A stretch of 64,000 bases of DNA from a bacterium. Lineage in GTDB: Bacteria > JAJRZV01. The notes beneath the pieces are model-generated. The model saw only the letters and a list, made by a program, of their open reading frames with translations, was not told where the DNA came from and ran no database searches. The DNA lies in contig JAJRZV010000047.1 of NCBI GenBank assembly GCA_024275095.1, positions 159 through 64,158 on the forward strand, given 5' to 3'. The position numbers were made by a program, and so were the translations under genes. Below, piece after piece: positions 22,129-50,560 of the stretch. How positions within the stretch are numbered: the first letter of the stretch is position 1; the number at the start of each line of letters is the position of its first letter.

Positions 22129-22313
22129 TGGGGAGTGCTCGATCATTGATGACACTGGTGCAAGTACCGTGAGCACGCTAAGAAGAAATTATTACAGGTG
22201 TATGTGTCGGGATGGAAAGTAGCAGGTGCCTTAACATTCGTGCTTACCACGCACCAGAAAGACTCAGGCTCGGGTGGGTCGGGGAATATAAGAATTGCAG
22301 GGTGCGCCGGGAA

Positions 22314-22410
22314 AGAACCAGGGATAGGGCGGGCGGGAAATATAAAGTAAGGCGCGCGTGCTGCCTGCGCGCCAGAAATCAGGGATAGGGCGGGCGGGAA
22401 ATATAAAGTT
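22314..22410 (+). repeat. Second copy of the box–hairpin–box leader module (boxes 22314-22348 and 22374-22410; hairpin 22351-22373); partial third box at 22273-22293
   Basis: ~95% identical to 20825-20920, including an identical hairpin and identical RBS context AAGGAGGTGCCAtCATG. Confidence 0.8.
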
Positions 22411-22424
22411 AAGGAGGTGCCATC

Positions 22425-22889: not shown

Positions 22890-22891
22890 AA

Positions 22892-23344
22892 ATGGCTGAG
22901 CCTGTGAAAGAAATCAAAGGTCGTTTGATTATTCCCTACAGGTGGTCTTACGGGCGTTCTCTTAGCCTGTTCTTCGAACACACACGCGTTGAAAAAAAGA
23001 TCTACGGGGCACGATGCACCAAATGTAAGAGAGTTCTTGTTCCTCCTGTGGTGGTATGCGGTAGATGTTTCGCCCCCACAGAGGAAGAATGGGTAGAAGT
23101 TGCTGACAGAGGAGAACTGATCGCGTGGACAACGGTTTATTATCCCTTTCCCGGCCAGCCCACACAGCCGCCTTACACTTATGGATATGTATTGCTTGAC
23201 GGTGCAAATACCAAATTCCCTCACCTCATCATGGAAATTGAACCGGAAAAGTTGAAACCCGGAATGCGTATGGAAGCAGTATGGAATGAGGATAGAAAGG
23301 GCGACCTTTATGATATAAAATACTTCCGACCGGAACAGAAATAA
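22892..23344 (+). CDS. DUF35-family Zn-ribbon + OB-fold protein (paralog)
   Basis: 150 aa. CTKCKRV…CGRC knuckle. It is tightly coupled to the upstream paralog, with a 2-nt gap. Confidence 0.72.
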   Translation: MAEPVKEIKGRLIIPYRWSYGRSLSLFFEHTRVEKKIYGARCTKCKRVLVPPVVVCGRCFAPTEEEWVEVADRGELIAWTTVYYPFPGQPTQPPYTYGYVLLDGANTKFPHLIMEIEPEKLKPGMRMEAVWNEDRKGDLYDIKYFRPEQK

Positions 23345-24333: not shown

Positions 24334-25602
24334 GTGAAAGGGAAATTGGAAATACTCGCTACCGCCGTTATCCTTTGCTTTACAGTCACAAGCAGTTCCG
24401 CCCACGCTGATAAATGCGTGAAATGTCATTCTAAAGTAACCCCCAAAATCGTATCTGACTGGAAACTCAGCAAACACTTTCAAAACGACGTCTCATGCAG
24501 TGAATGCCACGGTTCCAGGCACAAAAAAGGCAAAAAAGATGCCCACAAAGTTCGCATACCCACACCCGAGACATGCGCCTCCTGCCATGAAGAACGCGTT
24601 AAAGAATTCAAAGCAGGAAAACATGCGTATGCATGGGCAGCCATGAAAGCCATGCCCACAGCTCACCGGCAACCCATGGCACTCATGGACGGCATGAAGG
24701 GCTGTGGGGGATGCCACAAGATCGGTCTGAAAACAGAGAAAGAAATCAACGAACTCAAAAGGCAGGGCCAAAAATTCGGCATAGCATCATGCGATGCCTG
24801 CCACACGCGTCACCTTTTCAGCGTCAAAGAGGCAAAACAGCCTCAGGCCTGTCAGACGTGCCACATGGGCTTCGATCATCCTCAATGGGAAATGTATTCC
24901 TCATCCAAGCACGGTGTGCGTTATCTTCTGAAGCAGGATGGGATACTGCCTTCCGACGCAGCCGCCCCTACATGCCAGACATGCCACATGCAGGACGGTA
25001 ACCATGAAGTGCGCACCGCATGGGGATTCCTCGCTGTCAGGTTGCCACTTCCTGAAGATGAACAATGGAAGAAAGATCGAATCACAATCCTGCAGGCACT
25101 CGGCGTGCTTGATCCTCAGGGCAAACCCACAAAACGCCTGGAGGTGGTCAAAGCAGCAGACGTGGCTCGCCTCGACGAAGCCTCATGGCAGAAGGAACGT
25201 GACAAAATGATCAAAACGTGCAGTCAGTGCCATTCTCCTAAATTCGCCAGGAAAGAACTGGAAAAAGGCGACGAAATGATTAAACAGGCAGACCGGCTCA
25301 TGGCAGAAGCCATTCGCATAGTAGCCGATCTCTACCAGAAGGGCTATCTTAAGAAACCGGCCAGCTATCCTTACCCTTTTCCCGATATTCTTACCTTCCA
25401 CGATGCACCCACGGTCATTGAACAAAAGCTTTTCAAAATGTTCTTAAAACACCGCATGCGCACCTTCCAGGGAACATTCCACATGAATCCCGACTACGCC
25501 CTGTGGTACGGATGGAGTGAAATGAAACAGGACCTCACGGAAATCAAGGAACTTGCCGAAGAAATCAAAGCCAGAGCGAAACACGAGAAACATCACAAGT
25601 AA
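24334..25602 (+). CDS. Periplasmic octaheme c-type cytochrome (HAO / octaheme-reductase-like multiheme family)
   Basis: GTG start with AAGGAGGT 6 nt upstream. Sec signal MKGKLEILATAVILCFTVTSSSAHA. Eight CxxCH motifs (CVKCH, CSECH, CASCH, CGGCH, CDACH, CQTCH x2, CSQCH). Confidence 0.85.
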   Translation: MKGKLEILATAVILCFTVTSSSAHADKCVKCHSKVTPKIVSDWKLSKHFQNDVSCSECHGSRHKKGKKDAHKVRIPTPETCASCHEERVKEFKAGKHAYAWAAMKAMPTAHRQPMALMDGMKGCGGCHKIGLKTEKEINELKRQGQKFGIASCDACHTRHLFSVKEAKQPQACQTCHMGFDHPQWEMYSSSKHGVRYLLKQDGILPSDAAAPTCQTCHMQDGNHEVRTAWGFLAVRLPLPEDEQWKKDRITILQALGVLDPQGKPTKRLEVVKAADVARLDEASWQKERDKMIKTCSQCHSPKFARKELEKGDEMIKQADRLMAEAIRIVADLYQKGYLKKPASYPYPFPDILTFHDAPTVIEQKLFKMFLKHRMRTFQGTFHMNPDYALWYGWSEMKQDLTEIKELAEEIKARAKHEKHHK

Positions 25603-36549: not shown

Positions 36550-36783
36550 TTCACCAAAATATATGAAACAAGCATCGTGTTCAATATCCGATCCATTAAA
36601 TACATCAACTCCTGATATGTTTTGTTATTCTCGTACAAAGTTCCATGTTTTGAAAACAGGGTTAATTTTTATATTTCATCTTTAACTCAACCATTACTCC
36701 GAGACTTTTTAAGAATGCTTTGCTTCTATCATGGGCGTCTTTTGAGGCAAAAGTGTCAAAGAACTGTTATATTTTACTACGTA

Positions 36784-38403
36784 ATGAAATACCCACGAGA
36801 CCATAAAAACACTGAAAATACTCTCAAAATTAAATGGTACCAGAGTATCAGTTTTAAGCTTACATTTGTGGTGGGTTTTGTTGTTACGTGCATATTTGGC
36901 TTCTTCATGTACGTGGTTATGAAAACCAGCCAGGATTCCCTTTTGCGCGAACTTCTCAGAAGTGCCACCCAGCTCAGCGAAACGGTCAGAAGGAGTACTC
37001 ATTACGATATGCTCGAAAATCGTCGCGAAAACATATATCGCATTATACGTACCATTGCTTCGCAGAAAGGGATAGAAAAAATCCGCATTTTCAATAAAGA
37101 AGGTCGCATCATGTTTTCTACTGCTGAAGAAGAAGCAGGAAAGATGGTGGATAAAAAAGCCGAGGAATGCTATGCGTGCCATGCACGTGAGCGACCACTT
37201 GAAAGGCTGGACATTAAAAAACGAAGTCGAATATTCCGCTGGGGTGAAGATAAGCACCGCGTATTCGGAATGATTACCCCCATATACAACGAAGAAAGTT
37301 GCTATACTGCTGCATGCCATTATCATCCACCCGAACAGAAAATTCTTGGGGTACTGGATATCGTTATCTCCCTGAAAGATGTGGATCAACGTCGCGAAGC
37401 CATGCTCAAGCGATTTCTCATCACAGCCGCTCTGGCCATCCTCTCGACATGCCTGCTCATTATCGTATTTATGCAGAAAGCCCTCATCACCCCTGTGCGA
37501 AAATTAGTGGAAGGAACAGAAAAAATCGCTGAGGGCAAACTAGAGCACCGAATCGACGTGGATACCGAGGACGAAATTGGAATACTTGCGAGGTCCTTCA
37601 ACGTGATGGCTGAAAACCTGAAAAAAGCGGAAGAGGAGATTCAGGAATGGATAAGAACGCTGGAAGAAAAAGTTAAGAGAAGAACCCGGGAGCTGGAAGC
37701 CACGCAAAAGCAGCTCATCCAGTCTGAAAAAATGGTGTCCCTGGGCAAACTTGCAGCCACCGTTGCGCACGAAATCAACAACCCATTAACAGGAGTGCTC
37801 ACCTACCTCAGGCTTATTTCCAGGAAACTTTCAGAATCAGAAGGAGAAATGAAAAAAGAAGATCTGCTCAGGTACCTCTGGATCATAGAAGCTGAAATTA
37901 AAAGAGCTTCTGTCATAGTAAAAGAGCTCCTTGATTTCGCCCGCCAGAGAGAACCCATACTGAAAGAGGTGGACATCAACAAGGTCCTGGAGGGGGCACT
38001 TTCCATTCTTTCCAACGAGGTCGCTCTGAGAAACATTACAGTAAAAAAATACCTGTCCAGGGTGCCCATCATCAAAGCCGATCCCAATCAGCTCAAACAG
38101 GTGTTTATCAACATTGTTATGAATGCCTGCGAAGCCATAAAAGAAAAGGGTGAGATTACCATTACAACACGGTATGATGAAAATGCAGGAGAGGTGGAAA
38201 TTCAAGTTACAGATACAGGGATCGGTATTCCCGAAGAAAATCTTTCGCGCATATTTGATCCGTTTTTTACAACCAAAGAAAAAGGTACTGGTTTAGGATT
38301 GTCGGTGGCGTACAATATTATCACGAATCACAAAGGCAAAATCCAAATCACAAGCAAAGAAGGAGAAGGCACCACTGTAACTATTCGACTCCCTGTATCA
38401 TAA
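36784..38403 (+). CDS. Sensor histidine kinase (TM – periplasmic domain with c-heme-binding motifs – TM – HAMP – HisKA – HATPase)
   Basis: HisKA H-box VAHEINNPLT and the HATPase G-boxes are present. The periplasmic segment between two TM helices contains CYACH (CxxCH) and CYTAACH (Cx4CH). I prefer the ATG at 36784; the ORF-track start at 36622 has no RBS or TM logic. Confidence 0.82.
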   Translation: MKYPRDHKNTENTLKIKWYQSISFKLTFVVGFVVTCIFGFFMYVVMKTSQDSLLRELLRSATQLSETVRRSTHYDMLENRRENIYRIIRTIASQKGIEKIRIFNKEGRIMFSTAEEEAGKMVDKKAEECYACHARERPLERLDIKKRSRIFRWGEDKHRVFGMITPIYNEESCYTAACHYHPPEQKILGVLDIVISLKDVDQRREAMLKRFLITAALAILSTCLLIIVFMQKALITPVRKLVEGTEKIAEGKLEHRIDVDTEDEIGILARSFNVMAENLKKAEEEIQEWIRTLEEKVKRRTRELEATQKQLIQSEKMVSLGKLAATVAHEINNPLTGVLTYLRLISRKLSESEGEMKKEDLLRYLWIIEAEIKRASVIVKELLDFARQREPILKEVDINKVLEGALSILSNEVALRNITVKKYLSRVPIIKADPNQLKQVFINIVMNACEAIKEKGEITITTRYDENAGEVEIQVTDTGIGIPEENLSRIFDPFFTTKEKGTGLGLSVAYNIITNHKGKIQITSKEGEGTTVTIRLPVS

Positions 38404-38413
38404 CCTGTTTTGG

Positions 38414-38965
38414 ATGAAAAGAATTCACATCATCCCTGTTGGGAAAACGAATGTTTCCATGCTCGAGAGGATATCGAAAAAAGTGGAACATTTGTTAAAT
38501 GTACCCTCCGAGGTATTGAAACCTGTAAGTGTGCCCAAAGAAGCTTACGACTACGTGCGAAAGCAATATAACTCCACCGTAATTCTTAAAAACCTGCTGG
38601 AAAAGGTAACCCCTGACTCTCTCAAAGTTATCGGTATTACTCATGTTGATCTTTTCATCCCTGTTCTAACTTTTGTATTTGGAGAAGCCCAGTTGGGAGG
38701 ACAGGTAGCCGTGGTATCCACTGCCCGTTTAAGGCAAGAATTTTACGGACTTCCAGCGGATGAATTTGTACTGGAAGAGAGGCTCTACAAAGAAGTCATC
38801 CATGAACTGGGACACACTTTCGGACTTGTACACTGTTCGCTCAACAAATGCGCTATGTATCTTTCCACCAGCATAAAATTCATTGACCTCAAAAGCAGTG
38901 GCTTCTGCAGGGAGTGCCAGAAACAGTTGAACAAAAGCCTCCAATTGCTTAAAACAGACAGGTAG
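38414..38965 (+). CDS. amzA: Archaemetzincin-like zinc metallopeptidase
   Basis: 183 aa. HELGHTFGLVHCSLNKCAMY matches the archaemetzincin HExxHxxGxxHCxxxxCxM zinc site. Confidence 0.65.
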   Translation: MKRIHIIPVGKTNVSMLERISKKVEHLLNVPSEVLKPVSVPKEAYDYVRKQYNSTVILKNLLEKVTPDSLKVIGITHVDLFIPVLTFVFGEAQLGGQVAVVSTARLRQEFYGLPADEFVLEERLYKEVIHELGHTFGLVHCSLNKCAMYLSTSIKFIDLKSSGFCRECQKQLNKSLQLLKTDR

Positions 38966-38967: not shown

Positions 38968-40332
38968 ATGAATAGTAAAGTTAAAGTACTCATTGTAGAC
39001 GACGAGCAGGTGGTGAGAGATTCTCTCTCCGAATGGCTCCGAGAGGACGGTTATGAAGTGGGAGCTGTAGAAAGTGGCAAAAAAGCTCTTGAAGAACTGG
39101 GCAAAAGCAACTGGGACATACTTCTGGTAGACCTCAAGATGCCGGAAATGGACGGTCTGGAACTTCTCCAGAAAGTAAAGGAAATTTCTCCTTCCATACC
39201 CGTCATCATTATCACCGCATACGCCACAGTGGACACTGCCGTTAAAGCCATGAAAGAAGGTGCATATGACTATCTTGTAAAACCTTTCGATCCGGAAGAA
39301 ATTTCCCTCCTCATGAAAAGACTCACAGAGCACATTAAACTGACCCGCGAAAATATTTACCTTCGACAGCAGCTGAAGAAACAATACACGCTTCACGACA
39401 TTATCAGCAGAAATCCCAAAATGCAGGAACTGATGGAACTGGTCAAAATGGTGGGACCAACAGATTCAACCGTGCTTCTTCAGGGCGAAAGCGGCACCGG
39501 CAAGGAACTGTTCGCCCGCGCACTCCACAAAGAAAGTCTCAGAGCAGACAAGCCCTTTATCGCGGTCTCCTGCGGTGCGCTCAGTGACAGCCTGTTAGAG
39601 TCGGAACTCTTTGGCTACGAAAAAGGGGCATTTACAGGTGCTACATCTCGCAGAAAAGGGAAATTCGAACTCGCCAATGGAGGAACTATTTTTCTCGATG
39701 AAATAGGAGACATAAGTCCAAAACTCCAGCTTGACCTTTTAAGAGTACTTGAACAGAAAGAGTTCTACCGGATTGGCGGCTCAGAAGTCATCAAAATAGA
39801 TGTCCGGGTCATCGCCGCCACGAACAGAGATCTCGAAAAAATGGTGAGAGAAGGACAATTCAGGGAAGACCTTTTCTACAGGCTCAACGTTGTCCCCATT
39901 CACATCCCTCCTCTCCGGGAGAGAAAAGAAGACATACCCCTTCTGGTTGACCACTTTCTCGAAATTTTCAGGTTGGAAACAGGCAAAAACATAGAGCGTG
40001 TAAGTGAAGATGCCATGAAGGTGCTGCTCGATTACGACTACCCAGGAAATGTTAGAGAGTTGAGAAACATCATAGAAAGAGCCGTTATTGTGGCAAAAGG
40101 TGACGAAATTACTGTTGAAGACCTTCGCTTCGGGCTCAAATCACCGCCTGCACCTTCGACGGAAGCGGAAGATGAAGCGCTTGAATCGGTAGAACGAGCT
40201 CATATATTGAAAGTGCTTAATAAATATGACTGGAACGTAAGTAAGGCCGCATCCGCTTTAGGAATTGACCGCACCACCCTTTACAACAAAATGAAAAAAT
40301 ACGGCCTTACGCGCCGGGGGAACGACGCGTAA
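38968..40332 (+). CDS. Sigma-54-dependent response regulator (NtrC family: REC–AAA+–Fis-type HTH)
   Basis: REC Asp (LLVDLKMPEMDG). AAA+ GESGTGKE Walker A. GAFTGA sigma-54 contact loop. C-terminal HTH. Confidence 0.9.
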   Translation: MNSKVKVLIVDDEQVVRDSLSEWLREDGYEVGAVESGKKALEELGKSNWDILLVDLKMPEMDGLELLQKVKEISPSIPVIIITAYATVDTAVKAMKEGAYDYLVKPFDPEEISLLMKRLTEHIKLTRENIYLRQQLKKQYTLHDIISRNPKMQELMELVKMVGPTDSTVLLQGESGTGKELFARALHKESLRADKPFIAVSCGALSDSLLESELFGYEKGAFTGATSRRKGKFELANGGTIFLDEIGDISPKLQLDLLRVLEQKEFYRIGGSEVIKIDVRVIAATNRDLEKMVREGQFREDLFYRLNVVPIHIPPLRERKEDIPLLVDHFLEIFRLETGKNIERVSEDAMKVLLDYDYPGNVRELRNIIERAVIVAKGDEITVEDLRFGLKSPPAPSTEAEDEALESVERAHILKVLNKYDWNVSKAASALGIDRTTLYNKMKKYGLTRRGNDA

Positions 40333-40357
40333 GGCCTGCTTCTACTGCGGGTGCAGG

Positions 40358-41062
40358 TCAGGAGGTAAGGAAGAACCTCCTTGTGATCTCGTCCCAACGA
40401 TCCGGATCAAGGGCACGTGCCAATCCCTTTACAGGTAAACCGCCGTCCTGATACACAAGACCAAGATCCTGTCCCGTAAGCCTGCGAAGTTCATCTGTAG
40501 AATGTTCTATCCACTTTTTCACCACATGGCCTTTTAATAAATTCCTGAGTGCAGAAGGTCTTGAGAGCTTCACCTTTAGAAGCCAACCCTTTTCGTAAGG
40601 GTCCTGTTCCATGGTCTCGGGGGAAGTGAGCACGTCATTGTTAACACCTACAACCTCACCGTCCACAGGAGAAAGCATATCTATCTTTTTTGAATCTACA
40701 ACAAGAGCCCATCCTTTCTCTCCCTGTTCAAGCCTTGTACCTTCACGTGGTAAATCCAGTGAATTGACTTTACCAACGAGCTTTTGAGCAAAATCGTCAA
40801 GACCCACCTGAACCACGTCTCCCGAGAGTACTTTGACCCAGGTATGTCCGGGATGGAAATAATAGGGCGCTTCTGGAGGTGGGACGCGGAACCACTCCAC
40901 AATGTCATAAAGCCAACCGTGGGAGACCTCTGCTTCAGCCTCTACAGCGGGAGTGGTCAGGTAAGACCAAAAGGCAACCAGCAAAAGGAGGAAACCTATT
41001 ACCAGAAGATATTCAACGCCTTTTGTTGCGTATATGTCTATCATGGCCAGCGTCTCCATCAT
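40358..41062 (-). CDS. Membrane-anchored glycine-cleavage H-protein-like (lipoyl-carrier-fold) protein, paralog 1
   Basis: One N-terminal TM helix. H-protein core …YFHPGHTWVKVLSGDVVQVGLDDFAQKLVGKVNSLDLPREGT…VVDSKKIDMLSPVDGEVVGVN… aligns with E. coli GcvH, with a Lys at the lipoyl-attachment position. Start overlaps the NrfD stop (ATGA). Confidence 0.68.
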   Translation of the reverse strand: MMETLAMIDIYATKGVEYLLVIGFLLLLVAFWSYLTTPAVEAEAEVSHGWLYDIVEWFRVPPPEAPYYFHPGHTWVKVLSGDVVQVGLDDFAQKLVGKVNSLDLPREGTRLEQGEKGWALVVDSKKIDMLSPVDGEVVGVNNDVLTSPETMEQDPYEKGWLLKVKLSRPSALRNLLKGHVVKKWIEHSTDELRRLTGQDLGLVYQDGGLPVKGLARALDPDRWDEITRRFFLTS

Positions 41063-42303
41063 GCCACCTCCTTTTTCATCTGGACTACATTATCCTCTTC
41101 CTCCCAGCCCTTGTGTTCGGTCAACACAGGCATTCTGTTCACCACCCACCTGAAAGCCCACATTTCTGCACAAATAACTGCCAGTGTAATCACTATTTCC
41201 ATCCAGGAAGGCACGTACCTGTTGGCAGCGTCCCATTTAAAAGCGATGATAGAAACGTTCAATCTGTTGAGAAGCACACCAACAACCGTAAAGAAGGCAA
41301 CAGTTTGAATCAACTTCACATTGCGAGTTCTTACACCGTAAGTGAAAAGCAGACACGGTATTACAACAAAGCCTATGAGTTCCACCAGATACCAGTGCCC
41401 CATCGAGGTGTTCAGCAGGTGCCAGTGATTACCGTGAGCAATACTTATGATTTTTAATGTGAAGTAGAGAAACAGTGTACCTGCAGCAGCTTTTCCGAGT
41501 CCCACTACAATATCATCAAAGGAGGCATGGTGCTCCGGGTCCACCTGAAACACTTTATGCGAGATGGAACTTTCCACAATGACCATGGAAAGTCCTCCAA
41601 AAATGCTGGACACAAAGAAAAGAACCGGAAGATTGGTATACCAGAGAGGATGAACTTTTGTGGGAGCCATGAGGAATAAAGCCCCAAGAGCCGACTGGTG
41701 CAACGTGGACAACGTGATCCCAAAAATCACCGCTCCCACCGTAAGTCCTCCAACGATCTGTCGAATTCTTTTCCACCCGAGCCATTCGGTAATAGCAGGA
41801 CTGAATTCCACAAATTCACAAATGGTGTAGAGAAAAAAATGCCACGCGATGAGAAATAACACCGAACTGAGTCCAAAGGAGTTACCAATCAGAGGATTAA
41901 TGACGTGCCATGGGCGGCCAAGATCCAGTAAAAGGGCACCACCATAAAAGCAATACCCCAGAAACCCTGTAAGAACCGCCGGTCTTACGATTGGATGGTA
42001 TTTTTCAAGTCCCAGTATATACACCATAAAAGGAATTACATATCCACCAGCAGCAATAGCCACACCCCCCATTACGTCGAACCCGATCCATATCCCCCAT
42101 GGAAAATCCTGTGACAGGTTGGTGGTAGCGCCCAGGCCTTTTACAAATCGAATCACAATAAGTACGCCACCAGCGAGGATAATTGCTCCGGTGATGACAT
42201 TAAAAGGAGTGAGTATCTTCCCCTTTGGTTTCAACTCGCTAATGATGAACCTGACAAAGTTTCCGACTTCGGACATGAGATTTTTCCTTTCGGCAGTGTT
42301 CAT
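41059..42303 (-). CDS. NrfD/PsrC-family quinone-interacting integral membrane subunit
   Basis: 414 aa, ~10 TM. NrfD-like topology and size. Sits immediately downstream of the FeS subunit. Confidence 0.82.
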   Translation of the reverse strand: MNTAERKNLMSEVGNFVRFIISELKPKGKILTPFNVITGAIILAGGVLIVIRFVKGLGATTNLSQDFPWGIWIGFDVMGGVAIAAGGYVIPFMVYILGLEKYHPIVRPAVLTGFLGYCFYGGALLLDLGRPWHVINPLIGNSFGLSSVLFLIAWHFFLYTICEFVEFSPAITEWLGWKRIRQIVGGLTVGAVIFGITLSTLHQSALGALFLMAPTKVHPLWYTNLPVLFFVSSIFGGLSMVIVESSISHKVFQVDPEHHASFDDIVVGLGKAAAGTLFLYFTLKIISIAHGNHWHLLNTSMGHWYLVELIGFVVIPCLLFTYGVRTRNVKLIQTVAFFTVVGVLLNRLNVSIIAFKWDAANRYVPSWMEIVITLAVICAEMWAFRWVVNRMPVLTEHKGWEEEDNVVQMKKEVA

Positions 42304-42316
42304 TTTGTCCCCTCCT

Positions 42317-43195
42317 TCATTTAGCTTTTTTCACTTCTTCTTTTTTCACCTCTTCCCTGCGAGCATGGCTGATGCCCAGCAGAAAAGCAGGCCATATAAG
42401 AAGGACAAGAGAAACCCCGTAAAGGAATTCCTTTGTCAGTTCAGGATATGGTCTTGTGCCTACATTCGTGGGGAATCCAAGCTGTTCGAAGGGGACAGCA
42501 GCAAGGTACAACCATCCGGTGCCACCAACTTCGTGTTCGCCATAAACATGATGGACGTATTTATCAGGATTGTTATAAATACGCCTCTTTGCTTCTTCAA
42601 GAAGTTCACCCCTTTTACCAAAGACGATCGCTTCCTCAGGACATGCCTCCACGCACGCCGGCTGTTCTCCTTTCTCCAGCCTTTCGTAACACATGATGCA
42701 TTTGCGGATGCGGGGGTTAGGGCTGTCGTATTCAAACTTCGGAATATCGAAAGGACACGAAATCATACAATAACGACAGCCCATGCATTTATTCCCCCGC
42801 CAGATCACAGGACCTTCTGGTGTTTTATACATGGCCTTAACCAGACACGCCGATGCACAGGCAGGTTGATTACAGTGCATGCACTGTTTCTTCGCGTATA
42901 CCGTGCCCTTTTCTGTTTCATACCGATTTACCACGGTCCAGTGGTTCGGGTCAGTTTTACGATGCCTCTCGAACACAGATTCATCATCAATATCAGGCAC
43001 CGGAAGACCGTGAGCTTCTGCACACGCCTCTTCACAACTTCGACAACCAATGCACCGTGTGGTATCCACCAGTACAGAAGCCATTTCATTGAACACATCC
43101 TGGGCTGACTTCAAAGTACCGGCAGATGCAAGACCCCCGGTAAGGAGGGCTCCACCTGAAATCGCCGCAGTTTTGAGGAAGTCTCTTCGTCTCAT
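42317..43195 (-). CDS. Tat-exported 4x[4Fe-4S] ferredoxin subunit (NrfC/PsrB/HybA/DsrO-like)
   Basis: Twin-arginine signal MRRRDFLKTAAISGGALL. Four Cys clusters (CIGCRSCEEAC, CMHCNQPACASAC, CMGCRYCMISCP, CIMC…CVEACP). C-terminal hydrophobic helix. Confidence 0.85.
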   Translation of the reverse strand: MRRRDFLKTAAISGGALLTGGLASAGTLKSAQDVFNEMASVLVDTTRCIGCRSCEEACAEAHGLPVPDIDDESVFERHRKTDPNHWTVVNRYETEKGTVYAKKQCMHCNQPACASACLVKAMYKTPEGPVIWRGNKCMGCRYCMISCPFDIPKFEYDSPNPRIRKCIMCYERLEKGEQPACVEACPEEAIVFGKRGELLEEAKRRIYNNPDKYVHHVYGEHEVGGTGWLYLAAVPFEQLGFPTNVGTRPYPELTKEFLYGVSLVLLIWPAFLLGISHARREEVKKEEVKKAK

Positions 43196-43212
43196 TTCCG
43201 TTTACCTCCTTA

Positions 43213-43845
43213 TCAGGCTTTCTCTAAAAACTCTTTCACAATTGCCTGCCAGTGCTCTTTGTCTATTTTCTCGGAAAGTCCTTTAGGCACCTCTCCTCCA
43301 TCTGCTACAGTCACTCCAACTTCGGCGCTGAGGAAGTGATGGAGTCGATCTGATTCTCTCAACAGCCACTCTTTCGCCTTTTCACCGGAATAGAGGTCTT
43401 TCAAACCTCTCTTTTGTACCTTCATTTTGAGTATCCACCCTTCGCCGTAAGGGTCTTCTGAAACCACTTCCGGACGATGCAAGACAGTGGAGTTCACCTC
43501 CACTACCGTTCCATCAATGGGCCCAGGAACATTTACTTCTCCAGCATGGGCAGCGATCCTTATTGACGGCTTCCCTCTTCTCACCTCTCTTTTGGGCGGA
43601 ATTATCTCGCGAATGCGTCCAATAAGACGGACAGCAAAATCATCCAGACCGACCCTTGCAACCTCCTTCTCTTCAGGCTGAATCCACGTATGTACTGGTG
43701 AATAGAACCGGTCACCCGCAAAAACGAAACCGTGAACCTTCTCTATCCCCTCTGTTTTCACCCGCTGGCTCAACATCTGAGCCACCGCTATGGCACCCAT
43801 AACCACGAAAATCAAAAAAATCGCCACGTAACCCATAACGTTCAC
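43213..43845 (-). CDS. Membrane-anchored glycine-cleavage H-protein-like protein, paralog 2 (lipoyl-Lys position not conserved)
   Basis: N-terminal TM helix, then …SPVHTWIQPEEKEVARVGLDDFAVRLIGRI…PIDGTVVEVN… An Ala/His sits at the position aligning to the GcvH lipoyl-Lys. Confidence 0.66.
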   Translation of the reverse strand: MNVMGYVAIFLIFVVMGAIAVAQMLSQRVKTEGIEKVHGFVFAGDRFYSPVHTWIQPEEKEVARVGLDDFAVRLIGRIREIIPPKREVRRGKPSIRIAAHAGEVNVPGPIDGTVVEVNSTVLHRPEVVSEDPYGEGWILKMKVQKRGLKDLYSGEKAKEWLLRESDRLHHFLSAEVGVTVADGGEVPKGLSEKIDKEHWQAIVKEFLEKA

Positions 43846-44600
43846 CTCCTTTTCCTTTTTTTAAAAAAGCTTCTTGCCACCATCCCCCATTCCACCTGGT
43901 CGAGCTGCTTGTGCAAGCCAGGCATAATCTCTCCCCCGTCAGCAACAACCACGCCCAGTCTTTCCTCGAGAATTCTGTGCAGCTTATCAACTTCCTTTTC
44001 TATCCAATTTTTCACGCTCTCTCCGTGCAAGAGATTTTCGAGTGCATTTTGATCTTCAGGTTCTATCTCGCAGATCCAGCCCTCGAGATAGGGATCTCTC
44101 GTGAGGAGGCCGGGGTCTGCCTTTAAAGACTCATTTATTCCCACGACTGTACCGCTTACCGGGGAAAGCAGGCGTACTGATTTATCCCCGCACTTCACTT
44201 CACAAAGCACCTCCCCCTCTTTAACGAGACTTCCAGGCTCCGGGAGTTGAAGAGAAGAGACTCCATCCAGCAATCTGCTCCCAAAATGATCAAGTCCCAC
44301 TGACACGCGATTACGACCAGGCTTTACCCACAGGTGAGCAGGGTGATAGTAGAGATTCTTCATGAAGTAATAACCTCTTACCTTCTCGAGAAATGGCCTT
44401 ATGAGAGACTCCCTGTAAAACGGACACAAATGATACTCACCGGACGTGCACAGCGAAGGCTCCTTTTCAATGGACTCCAGGGGAATGGGTTTGCGCGTGG
44501 GAGCTTCACGACAGAATCCCACTGTTACAATCTCCAGGTGAGGACACTTGCCTCTTGTTTTCCTTTTTCGAGACTTTTTGAGGGTTACCTTTTTTCTCAT
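43842..44600 (-). CDS. Glycine-cleavage H-protein-like protein, paralog 3, with basic/Cys-rich N-terminal region
   Basis: …HPAHLWVKPGRNRVSVGLDHFGSRLL…EVKCGDKSVRLLSPVSGTVVGIN… The N-terminus is MRKKVTLKKSRKRKTRGKCPHLE…C…C…C. I prefer the ATG at 44600 (AGGAGG 8 nt upstream, downstream of the sigma-54 promoter) over the ORF-track start at 44669. Confidence 0.62.
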   Translation of the reverse strand: MRKKVTLKKSRKRKTRGKCPHLEIVTVGFCREAPTRKPIPLESIEKEPSLCTSGEYHLCPFYRESLIRPFLEKVRGYYFMKNLYYHPAHLWVKPGRNRVSVGLDHFGSRLLDGVSSLQLPEPGSLVKEGEVLCEVKCGDKSVRLLSPVSGTVVGINESLKADPGLLTRDPYLEGWICEIEPEDQNALENLLHGESVKNWIEKEVDKLHRILEERLGVVVADGGEIMPGLHKQLDQVEWGMVARSFFKKRKRR

Positions 44601-44627
44601 TTTATCGCCTCCTGGACATGCCAATGT

Positions 44628-44643
44628 AGCAAATGCCATGCCA
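44628..44643 (-). promoter_or_regulatory. Sigma-54 (-24/-12) promoter TGGCAT-N5-TTGCT for the H-like/FeS/NrfD operon
   Basis: The minus strand reads 5'-TGGCATggcatTTGCTa-3' (consensus TGGCAC-N5-TTGCW). AGGAGG and ATG follow ~25 nt downstream. An NtrC-type activator gene lies adjacent. Confidence 0.6.
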
Positions 44644-44840
44644 CCATGGGCAATGGTCTCCAAAAGCACTACAGTAAAGGATTCTGAGAGACTCGCTATT
44701 TCTTCAGCGACCCTCAGAGTGTAGAAAAATTCATCTGTCGTGTTGCATTCTTCGACACACTTCTAAGACACACTGCGTCAACAATTCCGGTTTGCGTCAA
44801 AATGATAAAATGGGAACAAAAATTTAGTTTTTAGAGATAG

Positions 44841-45128
44841 GGTACGGATAAAAAGCAAGTCCATTGTGAATATTTGATAAACCCGAACTCGGGCATCCCT
44901 CACGAACTCACAAAACCCAGATGCCCACAACAAAATGCTTTCGTCGAATCTTTCTTCAGCTCCTTTGAAAAAGAAGTACAGCAAAAAATGACTTTTGAAA
45001 ACTTTGAACACCTTAAAAAAAGCCCGCTCGGCTTTTATCGAATTCTATAATCGTGTCCAAAATATGAAAATATGGGGGTTACACCACCAGGGGCTATGGA
45101 CTGGTTCAATGAAATTTGAAACTCCATA
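44841..45128 (+). mobile_element. Decayed IS3-family transposase remnant (C-terminal rve-domain fragment, frameshifted)
   Basis: Frame 1 translates to …GIPHELTKPRCPQQNAFVESFFSSFEKE… (cf. IS3 OrfB GI..[24 protein letters not shown]). After an A7 homopolymer (45016-45022) the +1 frame gives …ARSAFIEFYNRVQ… (cf. …YI.FYNxxRxH). No intact ORF or inverted repeats were found. Confidence 0.6.
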
Positions 45129-45537
45129 GTGTTCAAAGTCACTGGCTTCGCCTCTGTATGGACTGCGGTGGGGAAAACGTCCCTGTTGATACTCAACGGA
45201 AGAATAAAAAAAGAATAAAAAACCCGGGATTTTCAAAATTCCCAACAGATTGCTCATCATGTCTGCGCTCAGCCTCGTCTGCGTGATAATTGAAATATAT
45301 CTCAACAGGGCTGGACTTCTGGTGTGGGAATATTCCTGGAGGAACGCCCGCTTTCCATTTCTCATTTTTCTGATAGGATGCATGCCGTTTTTTCTCATGT
45401 GTTTCTACGTTTATATAACCTCGATGACCTGAGAAAGCAGAGAAAGGCTCTGAACATAACCTTCGGCACCGACATTTCCCTCTTCATTAGTGCCTGGCTT
45501 ACTTAACTCTCAACACCTTTAAATCGGCACACACATG

Positions 45538-46950
45538 TTAAAACGTGAACTCTGCGAGAACATAAACCATATCAAATTTTTTGAACAGTCCAAATTTTGT
45601 GCTGGGTTTGCCGTCAACTATCATGGAACCTGCCTTGATGGAAAGACTGTCCACTGGATAATATTCAAGTTCAGGAAAAATTGCATAAGAATTGGAATCA
45701 AGAAAATCACTGTAATCAGATACATTGAGGAGAAAACTTAGCCCTACCTTCAGAACTTCGGATATTACCTGATATTCACCTCTCATAAGGTAATAATCCT
45801 CTATTTCGCTTTCAAATCCCGGACGTCCCAGACCAGAATTTTCTGCTCTTTGAGTAAAGTCCATTTCATCAAAAAATCCGTGTATGTACTGAAAGTTGGT
45901 GTAGATTCCGTTTCCCACGCTGAAGGTGTAATCAAGACCTGCTACGAATTTCACGTATGCTTTTTCAAAAGCACTGCAGGTCTCACTCGTGAGCAAGTTT
46001 TTAAATTTCCAGTCTTCGGGTATGAAAATGCCCAGTTCTCCCCACCACCCGATGCTGAAGAGTTCTCCTGAAAATTCCAGACCCACCACCTGCAGAGATG
46101 GATAACCATATGTTACGGAAACCGCCACAGGAAAGGTTTGAATATTGCCTGAAATTTCCGATATAACGGGCATGTCAAAAAAACCCCTAAAGTATGAAAG
46201 AGCATAATCAATGTTAAATACTGTTCCAAAAAGACGGATCCCCCAGGGATTGTTGTCAGGCCTCCACGCAGGCATTTCTAAGTTCTGAACCACATTGATA
46301 GAAGACCCTTCAAACAATGGGAATTCTTCGACAAGTTCTCTTCTCATCACCTCTCCTGCCATTTCCCAGAATCCCAGGGGAAAGGACGCAGGTTTAAAGG
46401 AAAAAGTATAATTAACCTCCAGATTCACATAATCTGAAAAGTAATAGGTGAGGGATAAAACGGGGGTAGGGATGCTCTCCCCAAAATAATCAGGGTCAAA
46501 CGTCACAAAATTCGCCCAGTCTGAAGGATTGATGTTATCAAGGACGTGAATTTTATCTGCCTTGCCCCATTTGAGTCTCTGCTTACCAAGTTTTAAATCA
46601 AGGTTCTCAAGTCCGAAGCCCTCCACCTTGAAATAAGCCTCATAGAGAACAAGATCAAAAGAATTTATCTTTCCCCACCCTATGCCCTCTGTATCTGAGA
46701 GTTTCTCTACAGAAGGAACGTCCATGTATATAAAGTCAGCTCGGATAAAGTAATCTATATTTTCTCCAACCGTGCCTTCCACGTGGATTCTCGCATCTCC
46801 TTTGTTCAGGTAAAACTTCCCTGCTCTGTGAGGATAAAAGAACTCCTGAGAATCGGTTGTGAAAATTGTCGTGTAATACCTGAGCTTCCCTCCCACGGAA
46901 GCGTTGAGAGAAAGGGGAAGTATTAACGCAAAGAGAATGCCATTCATCAC
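45538..46950 (-). CDS. Putative outer-membrane beta-barrel protein (partner of MMPL/LolA-like operon)
   Basis: 470 aa with an N-terminal signal-like segment. Alternating beta-strand pattern and C-terminal …LAEFTF (terminal aromatic). Start overlaps the upstream stop. Confidence 0.5.
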   Translation of the reverse strand: MMNGILFALILPLSLNASVGGKLRYYTTIFTTDSQEFFYPHRAGKFYLNKGDARIHVEGTVGENIDYFIRADFIYMDVPSVEKLSDTEGIGWGKINSFDLVLYEAYFKVEGFGLENLDLKLGKQRLKWGKADKIHVLDNINPSDWANFVTFDPDYFGESIPTPVLSLTYYFSDYVNLEVNYTFSFKPASFPLGFWEMAGEVMRRELVEEFPLFEGSSINVVQNLEMPAWRPDNNPWGIRLFGTVFNIDYALSYFRGFFDMPVISEISGNIQTFPVAVSVTYGYPSLQVVGLEFSGELFSIGWWGELGIFIPEDWKFKNLLTSETCSAFEKAYVKFVAGLDYTFSVGNGIYTNFQYIHGFFDEMDFTQRAENSGLGRPGFESEIEDYYLMRGEYQVISEVLKVGLSFLLNVSDYSDFLDSNSYAIFPELEYYPVDSLSIKAGSMIVDGKPSTKFGLFKKFDMVYVLAEFTF

Positions 46951-47711
46951 CTTACCCTCCTTTTTAGATTTCTCTGCGTGAAGAGTTTGTCCGGAAGTCC
47001 CGTGTCAAATTCAATGTTTTCCATCTTCAGGAGGGTCCTGTGCTCCTTTTTCACATCCTCCACCTCCATTTCAACCATTGCCCAGTATTTTCCAATTTTT
47101 CTATGCTTCGCCCTGAACACCTTCCAGAGATTTCCTCCTTCGTCATATTTTTTTATCTCCACAGGAAACCAGGATCTTTTATCTATCTTTAGGTCCATTG
47201 TGGGATAAGGTTTATCTGACCCCTTTTTCCTCTCCGCTTTCAAATAATAGAAATTTTCATCCTCTTTCACAATTTCAGCAGTGTAATGCTTTTCGTAATG
47301 AGATGTAGACATGTCATCATAAGACAGATCTGACCCCATGAAGCTTTCATTTTTCGTGTGCGATGCTATTCTCCTAACTTTTTTGAACGCTGGCATGTAG
47401 AGGTACATCCTGTCATCAGCCAGAACCAAAAAACCTACTCCCCTCACGTCAGGAGGTGAGATAAATTTTATCAGTCTCCAGTCATCCTTGCCGGGAATGG
47501 TTTTCTGCCATACCTTCATCTTTCTTACCTTTTTATTGCCTCGTTTATCCACTAAGGTCATCACCATTGTCATCTCCTGGTCCCGTGGTGCGGAGAAAGT
47601 TTCATCCACTTTTGTGAGTATTTCATCCCCTGTAATTGCCAAAGAACTCAGAGGAATTAACAATCCCGAAAACACTCCTGCAACCACCAAGTATTTGAAG
47701 CAGGTCTTCAT
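46947..47711 (-). CDS. Outer-membrane lipoprotein-sorting (LolA-like) family protein
   Basis: 254 aa with a signal peptide. It resembles the LolA-like proteins that accompany MMPL/RND exporters. Start overlaps the MMPL stop. Confidence 0.55.
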   Translation of the reverse strand: MKTCFKYLVVAGVFSGLLIPLSSLAITGDEILTKVDETFSAPRDQEMTMVMTLVDKRGNKKVRKMKVWQKTIPGKDDWRLIKFISPPDVRGVGFLVLADDRMYLYMPAFKKVRRIASHTKNESFMGSDLSYDDMSTSHYEKHYTAEIVKEDENFYYLKAERKKGSDKPYPTMDLKIDKRSWFPVEIKKYDEGGNLWKVFRAKHRKIGKYWAMVEMEVEDVKKEHRTLLKMENIEFDTGLPDKLFTQRNLKRRVR

Positions 47712-50560
47712 CTCGCACCTCCTTTTCTCAAACTTTTCTGTATAAAAGGACTGGCGCCCACAATCATGAGAAGGGGACCTATAAATCCCAGAACCACTGC
47801 TGCGGAGAGGAGGAGCATGGCTGACGTGAGCATACCGAACACCTTAAGGGGTTTAAGGGAAGATAGAAGAAGCACCAGGAACCCACCTCCAACAGATATT
47901 GCGTTGGCGAGAATCGCCCTGCCTGCAGTCCTGAAAACGTCCAATATGCTTTTTCTGATGTCACCTGTTTCCCTGAAGGCTTCCCTTAGCCTGTGAAGAA
48001 GGTGAATGGAATAGTCAATCCCTGCACCTATTGCAATTGAGCCCATCAGCATGGTCATGTAATCAAGAGGGGAAGAGGTGATGGGAAGAAGCGCGTAGGA
48101 TATTGCAATGGTGAGGAGAATGGGCAGTATACCAATCACCCCCAGCACAGGAGAGCGAAATTCAGCGCTTATGAGGAAAAACACCACAAAGAAGGAAAGC
48201 GCCATGGAAGTCCAAAAGGAGCGAACCATAAATTTATCCAGTTGATTGACCAGAGGAGGCATTCCCGTTTGAATAAAATTAACAGTTATTTTTTCACCGC
48301 TGTAATTGCCTTTCACTATCTGAAACCTGTCTGTTAAGCCATATAAAATGCCAGTGACTTTCTTCTTGAGTTCAGGGATTTTATCAATTTCAGGAACAGA
48401 GGATCTGAGCAATTCCGTGATTTTTTTCACCGTCATCTCCTGCAGGAGGAAACGTTCAATATCCCTGAGTTCCACAAAAAGGTCTTCTATCAGGTCAAAA
48501 TCCTTCGGAGGCACATACTCTTTCACTGCTTCAGCAAAAGTTTTTCTATCTTTAAGTGTAGCAAGTGCCTTTTTCGCAAACTCCGAAACCTTGCTCTCAT
48601 CAATTAACACAACTGATTCATCGCTCCGCAAGTATTTTTCTATTTGAGAGGTAAGTTTCGCCTTCAGAAACGAGTCATCTGGAGGTGAGAAAAGGGAGTT
48701 CAATGAGGAGACAATTTTTTCTTCAGATATTTTTCTGTTCGTATACTTCAAAATAAGTGTTGAGAGGAGTTCAGCCTTTTCGGGGAAAACGTGTTTCTTC
48801 ATTAAGGTAATCTTCTCTTCATCTGTCATGTTTTCTGTATCAATAATGGTGTAGGTGCCGTTTATATTGCGAAGTATTTTTTCTATTCGGACATCAATTT
48901 TTTTCATCAGCGCTGTGTCTATCTCCCTCACTCTACCCATTGCAAGGAGCTTCTTCTCATCCCCCGAGACAAGCTGTTCCATGATGTCCTGACCTTCAAG
49001 CATAAGCCAAAGGTTTGCCACCCCTTCATCCGTATCAGGAACTTTGAACCTCCCGTAAAGTTGATAGTTCATTTCAGCGAGCAGGTCCGCAACACTCTGG
49101 AAAGAACTCACGTCTTCAATTTCGTCCAGAAAAATTTCAACATCAAAAAGTTTTTTGAGAAGAGCAGAATTTTTAATCGTGCCTCCATCATCAGAAGAAT
49201 AGTAAATGAGCACGGGCATTGCTCCGTCAAAGTGTTCTTCCATGATGCGCGATGCTATGCGCGGAGCACTGTTCTCCGGGAAGAACGTGGTGAAATTCAC
49301 TTCCCTGCTTATGCGAGGTAATAAAAAAAGGGAACCAACCGCAAGGAACAGCCAGAAGAATATGAAAAATAAAGGTTTCTGTAATATGAATTCTCCTGCT
49401 TTCAAAAGCAGTCTGAACTCCCTGCGCTCACCCACAGTAACCAGAGATTTACGGGAAAGGGGAAATGTGCTCAGAAGAGCAGGGAAAAATGTGACCGACA
49501 GTATAAAGCACCAGAAAATCCCACCTGCTGTGAAAATTCCAAAGTGTTTTATTATGGTGAGCCTGGCAACTACGAAGGATGCAAAGCCGGCAAGGGTGGT
49601 AAAAGCAGCCATTGCCACTGGAGGAAGGATACTGTCCAGCCCTTCTGAACACGCCTGCTGAAAGTCTCTCTCACGGGCGTAAAGGGAAATTCTGTTGAAA
49701 ACGTGTATTCCGTAAGCACTTCCCATTGCTATGATGACCACGGGCATGATGGGAGAAATCATGGTCATGGGAACGTTGAAAACAGGAAGCAAAGCGAACA
49801 TGAGTACAGACCCAACGAACATTGACCCCAGAATGAAAAGCACAACCTTCACGCTTCTGAAGGTGACAAACAAAACAATCAAAATGAAAATAATCACCAC
49901 GGGCAGAAGTGTCTGCAGGTCCTTTACCGCAAACATATTGCCATAGAGAGCACTGACAGGCATCCCCCCGAAATACAACTTCACACTGTCTTTCCACTTT
50001 TCCGCTACGCGCTGGCTTTCCTTAATGACTCTCTCGCTCACTGCAATTTCATCATGCTGTCCGGAGAGAAATACGCTGATGGCAGTGAATTTCCCATCCT
50101 CTGAAACAATTGATTTTCTGAACATCTCCTTTGACAAGACATATTCACGGAGTTTTCTCAGTCCTTCTTCATCTGGGATATCCTTTATAAGTTCTGCAAC
50201 CTCCACTCCGCCCTCTATCTTCTTTATGTCGGTCATGTTTATGATGCTTATCACATTTCTCACGCCCTGAATCTTCTTGAGAGAAGAAGATATTTCCCTC
50301 ACGCACTCAAGGACATCCTTCTGGAAAACATCTCCTTTCAAACTCTCAACCACTATCATATCCATTTTGCTCGTTCCGAACTCCTTGCTCACGTGAATGA
50401 ACAATCCTGCAATGGGATCCTTTTTGGGCAAAAAGCTCTCAATACGGTTATCCATGTATATTCTGGTGAGCATGTAGCCTCCTGCAAGGAGAAACAGAGA
50501 GGTGAGTAAAATAATAAACTTTCTGTGTTTTACTACTTTATCTCCATAAACAACCTTCAC
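47708..50560 (-). CDS. MMPL/RND-superfamily exporter (two sterol-sensing-like 6-TM bundles)
   Basis: 950 aa. Two repeated 6-TM blocks, each preceded by a large periplasmic loop. MMPL-type N-terminus …RIYMDNRIESFLPKKDP…. Confidence 0.82.
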   Translation of the reverse strand: MKVVYGDKVVKHRKFIILLTSLFLLAGGYMLTRIYMDNRIESFLPKKDPIAGLFIHVSKEFGTSKMDMIVVESLKGDVFQKDVLECVREISSSLKKIQGVRNVISIINMTDIKKIEGGVEVAELIKDIPDEEGLRKLREYVLSKEMFRKSIVSEDGKFTAISVFLSGQHDEIAVSERVIKESQRVAEKWKDSVKLYFGGMPVSALYGNMFAVKDLQTLLPVVIIFILIVLFVTFRSVKVVLFILGSMFVGSVLMFALLPVFNVPMTMISPIMPVVIIAMGSAYGIHVFNRISLYARERDFQQACSEGLDSILPPVAMAAFTTLAGFASFVVARLTIIKHFGIFTAGGIFWCFILSVTFFPALLSTFPLSRKSLVTVGERREFRLLLKAGEFILQKPLFFIFFWLFLAVGSLFLLPRISREVNFTTFFPENSAPRIASRIMEEHFDGAMPVLIYYSSDDGGTIKNSALLKKLFDVEIFLDEIEDVSSFQSVADLLAEMNYQLYGRFKVPDTDEGVANLWLMLEGQDIMEQLVSGDEKKLLAMGRVREIDTALMKKIDVRIEKILRNINGTYTIIDTENMTDEEKITLMKKHVFPEKAELLSTLILKYTNRKISEEKIVSSLNSLFSPPDDSFLKAKLTSQIEKYLRSDESVVLIDESKVSEFAKKALATLKDRKTFAEAVKEYVPPKDFDLIEDLFVELRDIERFLLQEMTVKKITELLRSSVPEIDKIPELKKKVTGILYGLTDRFQIVKGNYSGEKITVNFIQTGMPPLVNQLDKFMVRSFWTSMALSFFVVFFLISAEFRSPVLGVIGILPILLTIAISYALLPITSSPLDYMTMLMGSIAIGAGIDYSIHLLHRLREAFRETGDIRKSILDVFRTAGRAILANAISVGGGFLVLLLSSLKPLKVFGMLTSAMLLLSAAVVLGFIGPLLMIVGASPFIQKSLRKGGAR

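Follow-up and report, generated by a model that had tools for sequence, protein, structure and literature searches.

Organization of the Operon

We describe five co-directional genes on the minus strand of a 64,000-nucleotide stretch of bacterial DNA (assembly GCA_024275095.1, contig JAJRZV010000047.1, positions 159 to 64,158; hereafter the window, whose numbering is used below). The genes occupy 40358-44600 and encode, in order of transcription, a protein with the fold of the glycine cleavage H-protein GcvH (H3, 43842-44600, 252 amino acids, its ATG preceded by GGAGG), a second such protein (H2, 43213-43845, for which ribosome-binding-site and start-codon reasoning makes the ATG at 43836 the likely true start, giving 207 amino acids), a tail-anchored iron-sulfur (FeS) subunit exported by the twin-arginine translocation (Tat) pathway and resembling HmcB and HybA (42317-43195), an NrfD-type, quinone-interacting membrane subunit resembling HmcC and HybB (41059-42303), and a third GcvH-fold protein, which joins a transmembrane (TM) helix like that of HmcD and NhcD to the H domain and a QDGG tail (H1, 40358-41062). 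To the reading developed here, that these genes encode a cytochrome c:menaquinone module which carries GcvH-fold adaptors or regulators, free of lipoate, on its cytoplasmic face and is controlled by sigma-54 and a neighboring kinase, we give about an even chance of being correct. A first-pass annotation of the window had recognized the same five genes, and all of their open reading frames (ORFs) were recovered at those positions. It had also described the genes as overlapping at their starts and stops, which holds for the NrfD/H1 junction (ATGA) only; the remaining junctions are spacers of 5, 17, and 13 nt. A GGAGG ribosome-binding site precedes each of the five.

Upstream of H3 lies a strict match to a sigma-54 (-24/-12) promoter (TGGCATGGCATTTGCT, 44628-44643, minus strand), which reads TGGCAT-N5-TTGCT and is located 28 nt upstream of the GGAGG-ATG start. 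It is the sole strict match on either strand of the 64-kb window, where 0.10 would be expected. We also collected 82 related loci, called their ORFs, and searched these with the window proteins; 20 of 63 related loci have a sigma-54-like motif ahead of the first operon gene, where the background rate is 0.022 per 380 nt. The unique motif, its recurrence, and the adjoining gene for an NtrC-type activator (below) bear out the earlier proposal that the operon is under sigma-54 control. A sequence search upstream of the promoter revealed no palindromic enhancer site, and Rfam and tRNA scans gave no match near the operon. At the other end, 3' of the H1 stop codon, an intrinsic terminator (40303-40336, minus strand) combines a 14-bp stem containing 10 GC pairs with a T-run.

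The FeS and Membrane Subunits

The Tat motif of the FeS protein reads RRRDFLK. The 16 Cys residues of the protein form four Cys4 groups, for which four [4Fe-4S] clusters are predicted, and residues 257-275 make up a C-terminal TM helix. The protein matches Pfam Fer4_11 and TAT_signal, in agreement with the initial description of a Tat-exported FeS subunit that has its own signal. The best NCBIfam match is HmcB (358 bits, cut-off 420), followed by HybA (247 bits), and a pairwise alignment with Escherichia coli HybA gives 36% identity over the full length.

The membrane subunit has about 9-10 hydrophobic spans. Pfam, searched to an E value of 10, returned no match for it, NrfD included, and neither did a PDB sequence search. 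Its best NCBIfam match is HmcC (441 bits, cut-off 550) and the next HybB (257 bits), and it aligns with E. coli HybB over the full length at 30% identity; matches of the core subunits to QrcD (60 bits) and QrcC (59 bits) are far weaker. Comparison of the operon with two-subunit quinone-reactive FeS/NrfD cores, as first proposed, is therefore apt, the closest by NCBIfam being HmcB/HmcC and then HybA/HybB. According to Lubek et al. (2019), as summarized in PMC8076601, replacement of HybB residues R89, Y99, E148, and H184 lowers hydrogen oxidation in E. coli. These residues correspond to R107, Y117, E166, and H202 of the membrane subunit and are invariant in 63-64 of 64 homologues. Such retention of the proton-path and quinone residues of HybB suggests real turnover.

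A probable third element of the Hmc type lies at the N-terminus of H1, where residues 12-36 give a weak NCBIfam match to HmcD (17.9 bits, cut-off 34, E 0.002). PF28260, whose name DVU_0533 is the locus tag of HmcD, is recorded on many H1 orthologues, being marked as weak in L001, and in two loci (L113 and L117) the HmcD-like helix is encoded as a separate peptide of 45-54 amino acids directly after the NrfD-type gene. As noted at the outset, neither the operon nor the adjoining genes encode a molybdopterin or other catalytic subunit, as judged from ORFs and Pfam. By sequence, then, the core is a 'BCD'-like module of the Hmc/Nhc type, without the cytochrome A subunit and the HmcE/HmcF arm, and among NrfD-type quinone modules it looks like a working representative of the Hmc/Nhc/Hyb branch. 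Our confidence in the nature of the core, and in the conservation of the cassette described next, is high.

Distribution of the Cassette

An H1 profile search found relatives in many phyla, in no fewer than 484 species-level genomes. The cassette occurs in Thermodesulfobacteriota/Syntrophia, Calditrichota, Bacteroidota, Gemmatimonadota, and Nitrospinota, and further in Acidobacteriota, Rokubacteria, KSB1, Schekmanbacteria, and several candidate phyla. MAGs that bear the names Syntrophus aciditrophicus and Caldithrix abyssi are among the carriers. Among the 82 loci, the FeS subunit was found in 67, the NrfD-type subunit in 73, and a sensor kinase and an M54 metalloprotease in 52 each, with the activator alongside. 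H1 lies immediately beside the FeS and NrfD genes, accompanied by one to three further H-fold genes; the gene order varies from locus to locus and the parts list is constant. In 24 of 73 loci a multihaem ORF is found no more than 2.5 kb from the cluster, and at least 12 loci have a small gene for a 3-4-haem, c3-type cytochrome directly after the cluster. The only multihaem gene in the window itself, at 24334-25602 on the plus strand and 16 kb from the operon, encodes an octahaem c-type cytochrome (8 CXXCH motifs, Pfam Multi-haem_cyto) that may serve the FeS subunit as a periplasmic partner.

The GcvH-Fold Proteins

All three H proteins match Pfam GCV_H (E values of 1.2e-24 for H1, 2.4e-20 for H2, and 8e-23 for H3). 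The AlphaFold (AF2) model of H3 has a predicted local distance difference test (pLDDT) score above 93 for residues 71-215, and that of H1 consists of a helix (residues 2-36) and a confidently modeled H domain (residues 70-170). In a Foldseek search the significant matches were all H-proteins, with a TM-score of about 0.9 and a root-mean-square deviation of 1.2-1.4 Å. Pfam, AF2, and Foldseek thus agree on the GcvH fold that had been assigned from the sequence, and no unrelated fold was assigned. Scores against the NCBIfam profiles for GcvH fall below the family cut-offs: H1, H2, and H3 reach 91, 75, and 85 bits with PRK01202 (cut-off 117) and 75, 58, and 74 bits with TIGR00527 (cut-off 115.85).

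The proteins of the related loci fall into four classes that differ in what precedes the H domain. Class A, to which H1 belongs, has the HmcD-like helix. Class B has a TM helix followed by basic residues, and in H2 this helix spans residues 3-21, ahead of the basic stretch, the GcvH-fold domain, and the tail. Class C has an invariant CPFLE...C(K/R)A.P.KK.IP...C...C module that occurs once or twice and is sometimes a separate small protein; H3, its representative here, has neither a TM helix nor a signal peptide and comprises a basic N-terminus, the Cys4 module (C19, C30, C51, and C59), the GcvH-fold domain, and the DGG tail. Sixteen class-C proteins all have the four Cys residues and the DGG. 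Cys is absent from H1 and H2. Class D, not represented in the window, has a C.WM..G...YKLC.....C..C module. Cys4 modules are also encoded as separate proteins of 72-112 amino acids. The Cys4 module of H3 is modeled with low confidence, and Pfam to an E value of 10 gave no family for the class C and class D modules or for the DGG peptides. A phmmer search of the full library with the H3 N-terminus returned mostly class-C and stand-alone Cys4 proteins, one receiver fusion, and low-complexity noise. A word-indexed homologue search with H3 as the query gave 3 matches, and the class-C relatives were gathered with a profile of locus-derived proteins.

At the C-terminus, all H classes have an extension that bears the motif LGxxx(A/Q)DGG. 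In the H3 and H1 models the DGG loop is of low confidence, and the helix that follows it is conserved in H1-H3 and confidently modeled (pLDDT of about 93 in H3). The motif is not confined to H domains. In 9 of 72 homologues of the NrfD subunit a DGG tail stands at the cytoplasmic C-terminus and is followed by a short charged extension; these are the Syntrophus-type loci L011, L012, L015, L033, L034, L037, L043, L057, and L063. TM peptides of 68-104 amino acids likewise end in LGLTMADGG with a short charged tail after the motif (L001 9673-9939, L009 7461-7667, L011 7416-7730, and 16 others).

Relatives of the H domain also occur in fusions: behind a TM helix and a receiver (REC) domain (P0176), behind REC alone in a paralogous FeS-NrfD-cytochrome-kinase system (L083), behind REC and a Cys4 module (P0193), with a periplasmic binding-protein-like domain and a TM helix (P0151), and with a ferredoxin (P0149). 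Two loci (L013 6783-9425 and L024 11581-14058) encode an Acs-like (acetyl-CoA-synthetase-like, adenylate-forming) enzyme with a C-terminal H-fold domain. These read RSGRIMR and RSGRLMR where we take the Acs A10 motif to be SGKIMRR, so that the catalytic Lys would be replaced by Arg. In every genomic context examined, that of P0149 left out, FeS and NrfD genes adjoin the H-domain fusion proteins. This pattern of fusions, together with the FeS/NrfD neighbors, points to an adaptor or effector domain whose partner would be the FeS/NrfD module.

Topology and the Lipoyl Question

In H-proteins the lipoyl group is attached to a Lys at the tip of a hairpin, E-S-V-K-A, and the first-pass annotation had noted, correctly for the window, a Lys at or near this position in H1 (KK) and H3 (K) and none in H2. 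The hairpin is two residues shorter here than in true H-proteins, and its alignment is ambiguous. The residue at its tip varies across the classes. In class A it is K in about 70% of proteins, with R, T, Q, I, or S in the rest; class B has K or R, class C R or G, and class D G or Y. By comparison, Cao et al. (PMC6067878) found the Lys strictly kept in all 95 LbpA lipoate carriers that they examined. H1-H3 are therefore probably not lipoyl carriers, less clearly so in the case of the window H1 with its KK.

The anchored H domains appear to face the cytoplasm. Over 54 class-A and 60 class-B proteins, the charges flanking the TM helix show a clear positive-inside bias that places the H domain inside; for class B, the Lys plus Arg bias is 3.93 on the C-terminal flank versus 1.48 on the N-terminal flank. 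Paralog 1 (our H1) had been thought to face outward. The family charge bias, the fusion of DGG tails to the C-terminus of NrfD, and the stand-alone HmcD-like peptides argue against this orientation, and all H domains are predicted to be cytoplasmic.

These results bear directly on the function suggested previously, in which the H proteins are swinging arms that carry lipoyl or persulfide groups and the whole serves as a membrane-bound quinol:lipoyl-protein oxidoreductase relay. The proposal draws strength from the genuine H-protein fold, from the Lys at or next to the hairpin tip in the window H1 and H3 and in about 70% of H1 orthologues, and from L013 and L024, where an Acs-like adenylate-forming enzyme is joined to an H domain. 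However, the Lys is variable across classes A-D where it is strict in LbpA, the hairpin is shortened, and no lipoate ligase, lipoate synthase, or Hdr-like gene was found among the cassette ORFs of the related loci. Moreover, with the FeS subunit periplasmic, an NrfD-type subunit that has no cofactor, and no cytochrome b or HdrD-like subunit, there is no electron route across the membrane to the cytoplasmic H domains. We consider such a relay highly improbable.

A different redox role could be sought in the Cys4 modules of H3 and class D, which would bind Fe-S clusters or act as thiol switches and so make the H proteins a cytoplasmic redox or thiol-disulfide partner in place of HmcF/DsrK-type subunits. 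The invariance of the four Cys residues in class C, the occurrence of a second, unrelated Cys4 module in class D and of stand-alone modules of 72-112 amino acids, and the ferredoxin-H fusion P0149 are all consistent with this idea, as is the fact that redox subunits, HmcE and HmcF, hold the corresponding position in Hmc. On the other side, without a membrane-spanning haem b chain, periplasmic electrons would reach the cytoplasm only through quinone, whose site in the NrfD family is assigned to the P side (PMC8076601). The modules belong to no Pfam family, their models are of low confidence, and zinc sites would account for the Cys residues equally well. We regard a role of this kind as very unlikely.

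The Sensor Kinase, the Activator, and the M54 Protease

Three genes on the plus strand are convergent with the operon. The nearest (38968-40332) encodes an NtrC-type sigma-54 activator with the domain order REC, AAA+, and HTH_8 (Pfam Response_reg, Sigma54_activat with E 5e-73, and HTH_8), and it is co-located with the cassette in related loci. The farthest (36622-38403, with the true start probably near 36784) encodes a sensor histidine kinase (Pfam HAMP, HisKA, and HATPase_c) whose TM helices at residues 82-100 and 265-283 flank a periplasmic domain with the haem-c motifs CYACH and CYTAACH. This pair, CXXCH and CX4CH, separated by about 43 residues, is kept in 52 of 54 homologues. The periplasmic domain is thus probably a haem-c redox sensor, and the motif pair suggests a c3-like dihaem sensor. 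Between kinase and activator lies a gene (38414-38965) for an archaemetzincin-type M54 zinc metalloprotease (Pfam Peptidase_M54, E 6e-26), with an intact active-site motif, HELGHTFGLVH, and a C-terminal Cys cluster. We know of no role assigned to this family in bacteria.

M54 was found in 52 related loci, across phyla, and always beside the kinase and the activator. M54 and DGG tails are present together in all 52 sigma-54-type loci whose regulators are visible, and neither is present in L086 or in seven stand-alone receiver-type loci taken with their 10-kb flanks, which suggests that M54 acts on the DGG tails. The stronger statement that M54 strictly tracks DGG tails was set aside, since the correlation is confounded with regulatory type and a QDGG protein occurs in receiver-type systems that adjoin sigma-54-type ones.

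The receiver-type systems are paralogous to the cassette and lack the sigma-54 activator, M54, and DGG tails. Their genes run in the order FeS, NrfD, multihaem cytochrome, haem-c kinase, REC-H, and TM-REC-H (L083 2962-10155; L091, L094, L097, L099, L101, and L103). In the Bacteroidota loci L066, L067, and L081 the receiver-type system stands in tandem with a sigma-54-type cassette. Next to its receiver-type system, L083 also encodes, at 11750-13516 on the minus strand, an HdrD-like protein (Fer4 and CCG) joined to a receiver domain, and genes resembling those of sulfite reductase lie close by.

The association of M54 with DGG tails raises the possibility that the H proteins and the small DGG peptides are assembly or maturation elements, with the H domains as passive structural caps and M54 trimming the C-terminal extensions after DGG, much as hydrogenase endopeptidases trim large subunits. 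The co-occurrence in 52 loci and joint absence from the seven receiver-type loci and L086, the short charged extensions after DGG on the NrfD C-termini (9 of 72) and on the 68-104-residue TM peptides, the intact active site of M54, and the low confidence of the DGG loop, as expected of an exposed segment, can all be read in this way. Against it stand the confounding with sigma-54 regulation, the QDGG H protein of the adjoining receiver-type systems, and the helix after DGG in H1-H3, which is conserved and, being confidently modeled, would be unlike a disposable propeptide. As an account of the H proteins as a whole, trimming therefore seems unlikely to us.

The regulators also admit a reading in which the FeS/NrfD/H assembly is mainly sensory: it would equilibrate the haems of the kinase with the quinone pool or with periplasmic cytochromes, and the H domains would relay its state to the kinase, the activator, or the protease, so that the system would serve redox signaling and not bioenergetics. 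Kinase, activator, and complex are inseparable across phyla, the haem-c motifs are kept in 52 of 54 kinases, some H domains form fusions with receivers or with a receptor-like periplasmic domain, and the operon encodes no catalytic or cytochrome partner of its own. Yet an operon placed behind a sigma-54 promoter looks like an output and not an input, the H domain occupies the output position of the receiver fusions, the proton-path and quinone residues of HybB are invariant, and many loci add a dedicated c3-type cytochrome. A primarily sensory function is, in our estimate, quite unlikely.

Proposed Function

The reading that we favor for the operon, a cytochrome c:menaquinone module with H-fold adaptors or regulators, can be set out as follows. 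The FeS subunit would lie on the periplasmic side, and the NrfD-type subunit would hold the quinone site and a cytoplasm-facing proton path. By homology, this core would move electrons between periplasmic c-type cytochromes and the menaquinone pool, and the related loci provide tetrahaem c3-type proteins as such cytochromes. The domains of H1-H3 would sit on the cytoplasmic face of the NrfD subunit as adaptors or regulators, and they could control its coupling or its assembly, for example through access to the N-side proton half-channel. The adjacent NtrC-type activator would drive the sigma-54 promoter, presumably fed by the neighboring kinase as it senses the periplasmic redox state. The data show the gene content, the folds, the homologies, the synteny, and the conservation of motifs; we infer the direction of electron flow, the physical contact between the H domains and NrfD, the regulatory role of the H domains, and the link from kinase through activator to promoter. 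Our confidence in the role of the H domains is moderate to low.

Several observations weigh against this reading. The subunits of the core score below the NCBIfam equivalog cut-offs, which means that the operon is not an orthologue of Hmc, and the window's own operon contains no cytochrome gene. A Lys is retained at the hairpin tip or beside it in about 70% of H1 orthologues, the window H1 included, and H1 may be lipoylated or otherwise acylated in some lineages. The invariant Cys4 modules could bind Fe-S clusters and join in cytoplasmic redox chemistry. H1 of the window is atypical in that its C-terminal flank is acidic and has neither Lys nor Arg, which taken alone suggests an outward-facing domain and explains why the protein was first oriented in this way. 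Finally, it is by inference that we place the H domains in contact with NrfD and have them act on it.

A more far-reaching version of the favored reading holds that the GcvH fold has been recruited as a novel type of cytoplasmic effector that docks on the NrfD quinone module and switches its coupling or activity. The effector would be set transcriptionally here, through the kinase and activator, and possibly through processing of the DGG tails by M54, and by phosphorylation in the receiver-fused paralogues. We offer this version tentatively, as a possibility somewhat on the unlikely side. If it is true, a two-component system controls a respiratory quinone module post-translationally.

Many anaerobic respiratory complexes couple to quinone through an NrfD-type module, and no such module has been described with cytoplasmic subunits like these. 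Should the H domains regulate or cap the proton path, they would represent a new way to control energy coupling, and should they carry a cofactor, the lipoyl-domain fold would have found a new use at the membrane. The cassette also bears on the role of HmcD and NhcD, on that of bacterial archaemetzincins, and on the family of haem-c sensor kinases. There is a practical consequence as well, as the database label 'glycine cleavage system protein H' on the H-fold genes would wrongly credit the organisms with extra components of glycine cleavage.

Other Genes of the Window

About 830 nt separate the operon promoter from the nearest gene upstream, of the DUF1302 family. This interval (44700-45530) contains only short, odd-looking ORFs (77 and 117 amino acids), and it gave no Rfam match and no enhancer-like palindrome. 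The DUF1302 gene is part of a trio with LolA-like and MMPL (RND-type) genes (45538-50560, minus strand), probably for outer-membrane lipid or lipoprotein export, which is not conserved with the cassette. Elsewhere (2300-7716 and 14470-15855, minus strand; 17288-23344, plus strand), the window encodes CobN-type and ChlI/D-type chelatases, a LarA-like protein, acyl-CoA dehydrogenases, a thiolase, and two ChsH2-type OB-fold proteins. This content fits an anaerobic degrader of fatty or aromatic acids.

Comparison with Known Systems

The combination of genes had at first sight not been recognized as a described respiratory module, and our literature searches lead to the same view. They found no description that combines GcvH with NrfD, HmcC, or PsrC, none of the cassette, and, for archaemetzincin with sigma-54, none of the cassette either; the text of a review of the NrfD family (PMC8076601) contains neither 'glycine' nor 'lipo'. 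One candidate from the literature was set aside, as it concerned an ordinary gcv operon.

The closest relatives of the core are the Nhc and Hmc complexes of Desulfovibrio, which share with the operon a Tat-exported FeS protein with four Cys4 groups, a cofactor-less NrfD-type protein of 10 TM helices, and the gene order B-C-D, in which the helix of H1 would take the place of the small single-helix D subunit. NhcABCD, of which NhcD is a subunit, is assigned the role of a TpIc3:quinone oxidoreductase (PMC8076601), and the c3-type cytochrome genes that accompany many relatives of the operon fit this role. In contrast to Hmc and Nhc, the operon has no 16-haem HmcA or nine-haem NhcA, no HmcE (cytochrome b), and no HmcF (HdrD-like); a search of the ORFs with Pfam found no HmcA, HmcE, or HmcF in the operon or its flanks. 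Its D-like helix is fused to a GcvH-fold domain, and it encodes two more GcvH-fold proteins. It is further set apart by the haem-c kinase, the sigma-54 activator, and M54, and by a distribution that extends far beyond sulfate reducers. Hydrogenase-2 (Hyd-2) of E. coli has in HybA a tail-anchored Tat FeS protein and in HybB the residues R89, Y99, E148, and H184 that the core keeps. The operon differs from it in lacking hydrogenase subunits and maturation genes, in having extra cytoplasmic H-fold subunits, and in scoring below the HybA and HybB cut-offs. Because the partner subunits that define Hmc and Hyd-2 are absent, we rejected assignment of the operon to either.

QrcABCD and ActBC of alternative complex III combine a periplasmic FeS protein with an NrfD-like protein, with a quinone site on the P side and a proposed proton half-channel on the N side (PMC8076601). 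They share this architecture with the core, and none has been described with cytoplasmic H-fold subunits.

H1-H3 have the fold of GcvH and of LbpA from the sHdr system, as well as the motifs HxW, GxDDFAQ, SPxxG, and PYxxGW. They differ in their length of 207-252 amino acids, in their TM anchors or Cys4 modules, in a DGG tail of roughly 45 residues, in the absence of gcvT/P or sHdr neighbors, and in the shorter hairpin with its non-conserved Lys. The hallmarks of LbpA are the strict Lys, two conserved Cys residues, and linkage to sHdr and lipoate-ligase genes (PMC6067878); in H1-H3 the Lys is variable, H1 and H2 have no Cys, and the cassette includes no Hdr-like or ligase genes. Judged from these comparisons, the core appears to be of a known kind, and what appears to be new is the set of GcvH-fold domains that accompany it, one on an HmcD-like helix, one on a second TM anchor, and one in a soluble Cys4 protein.

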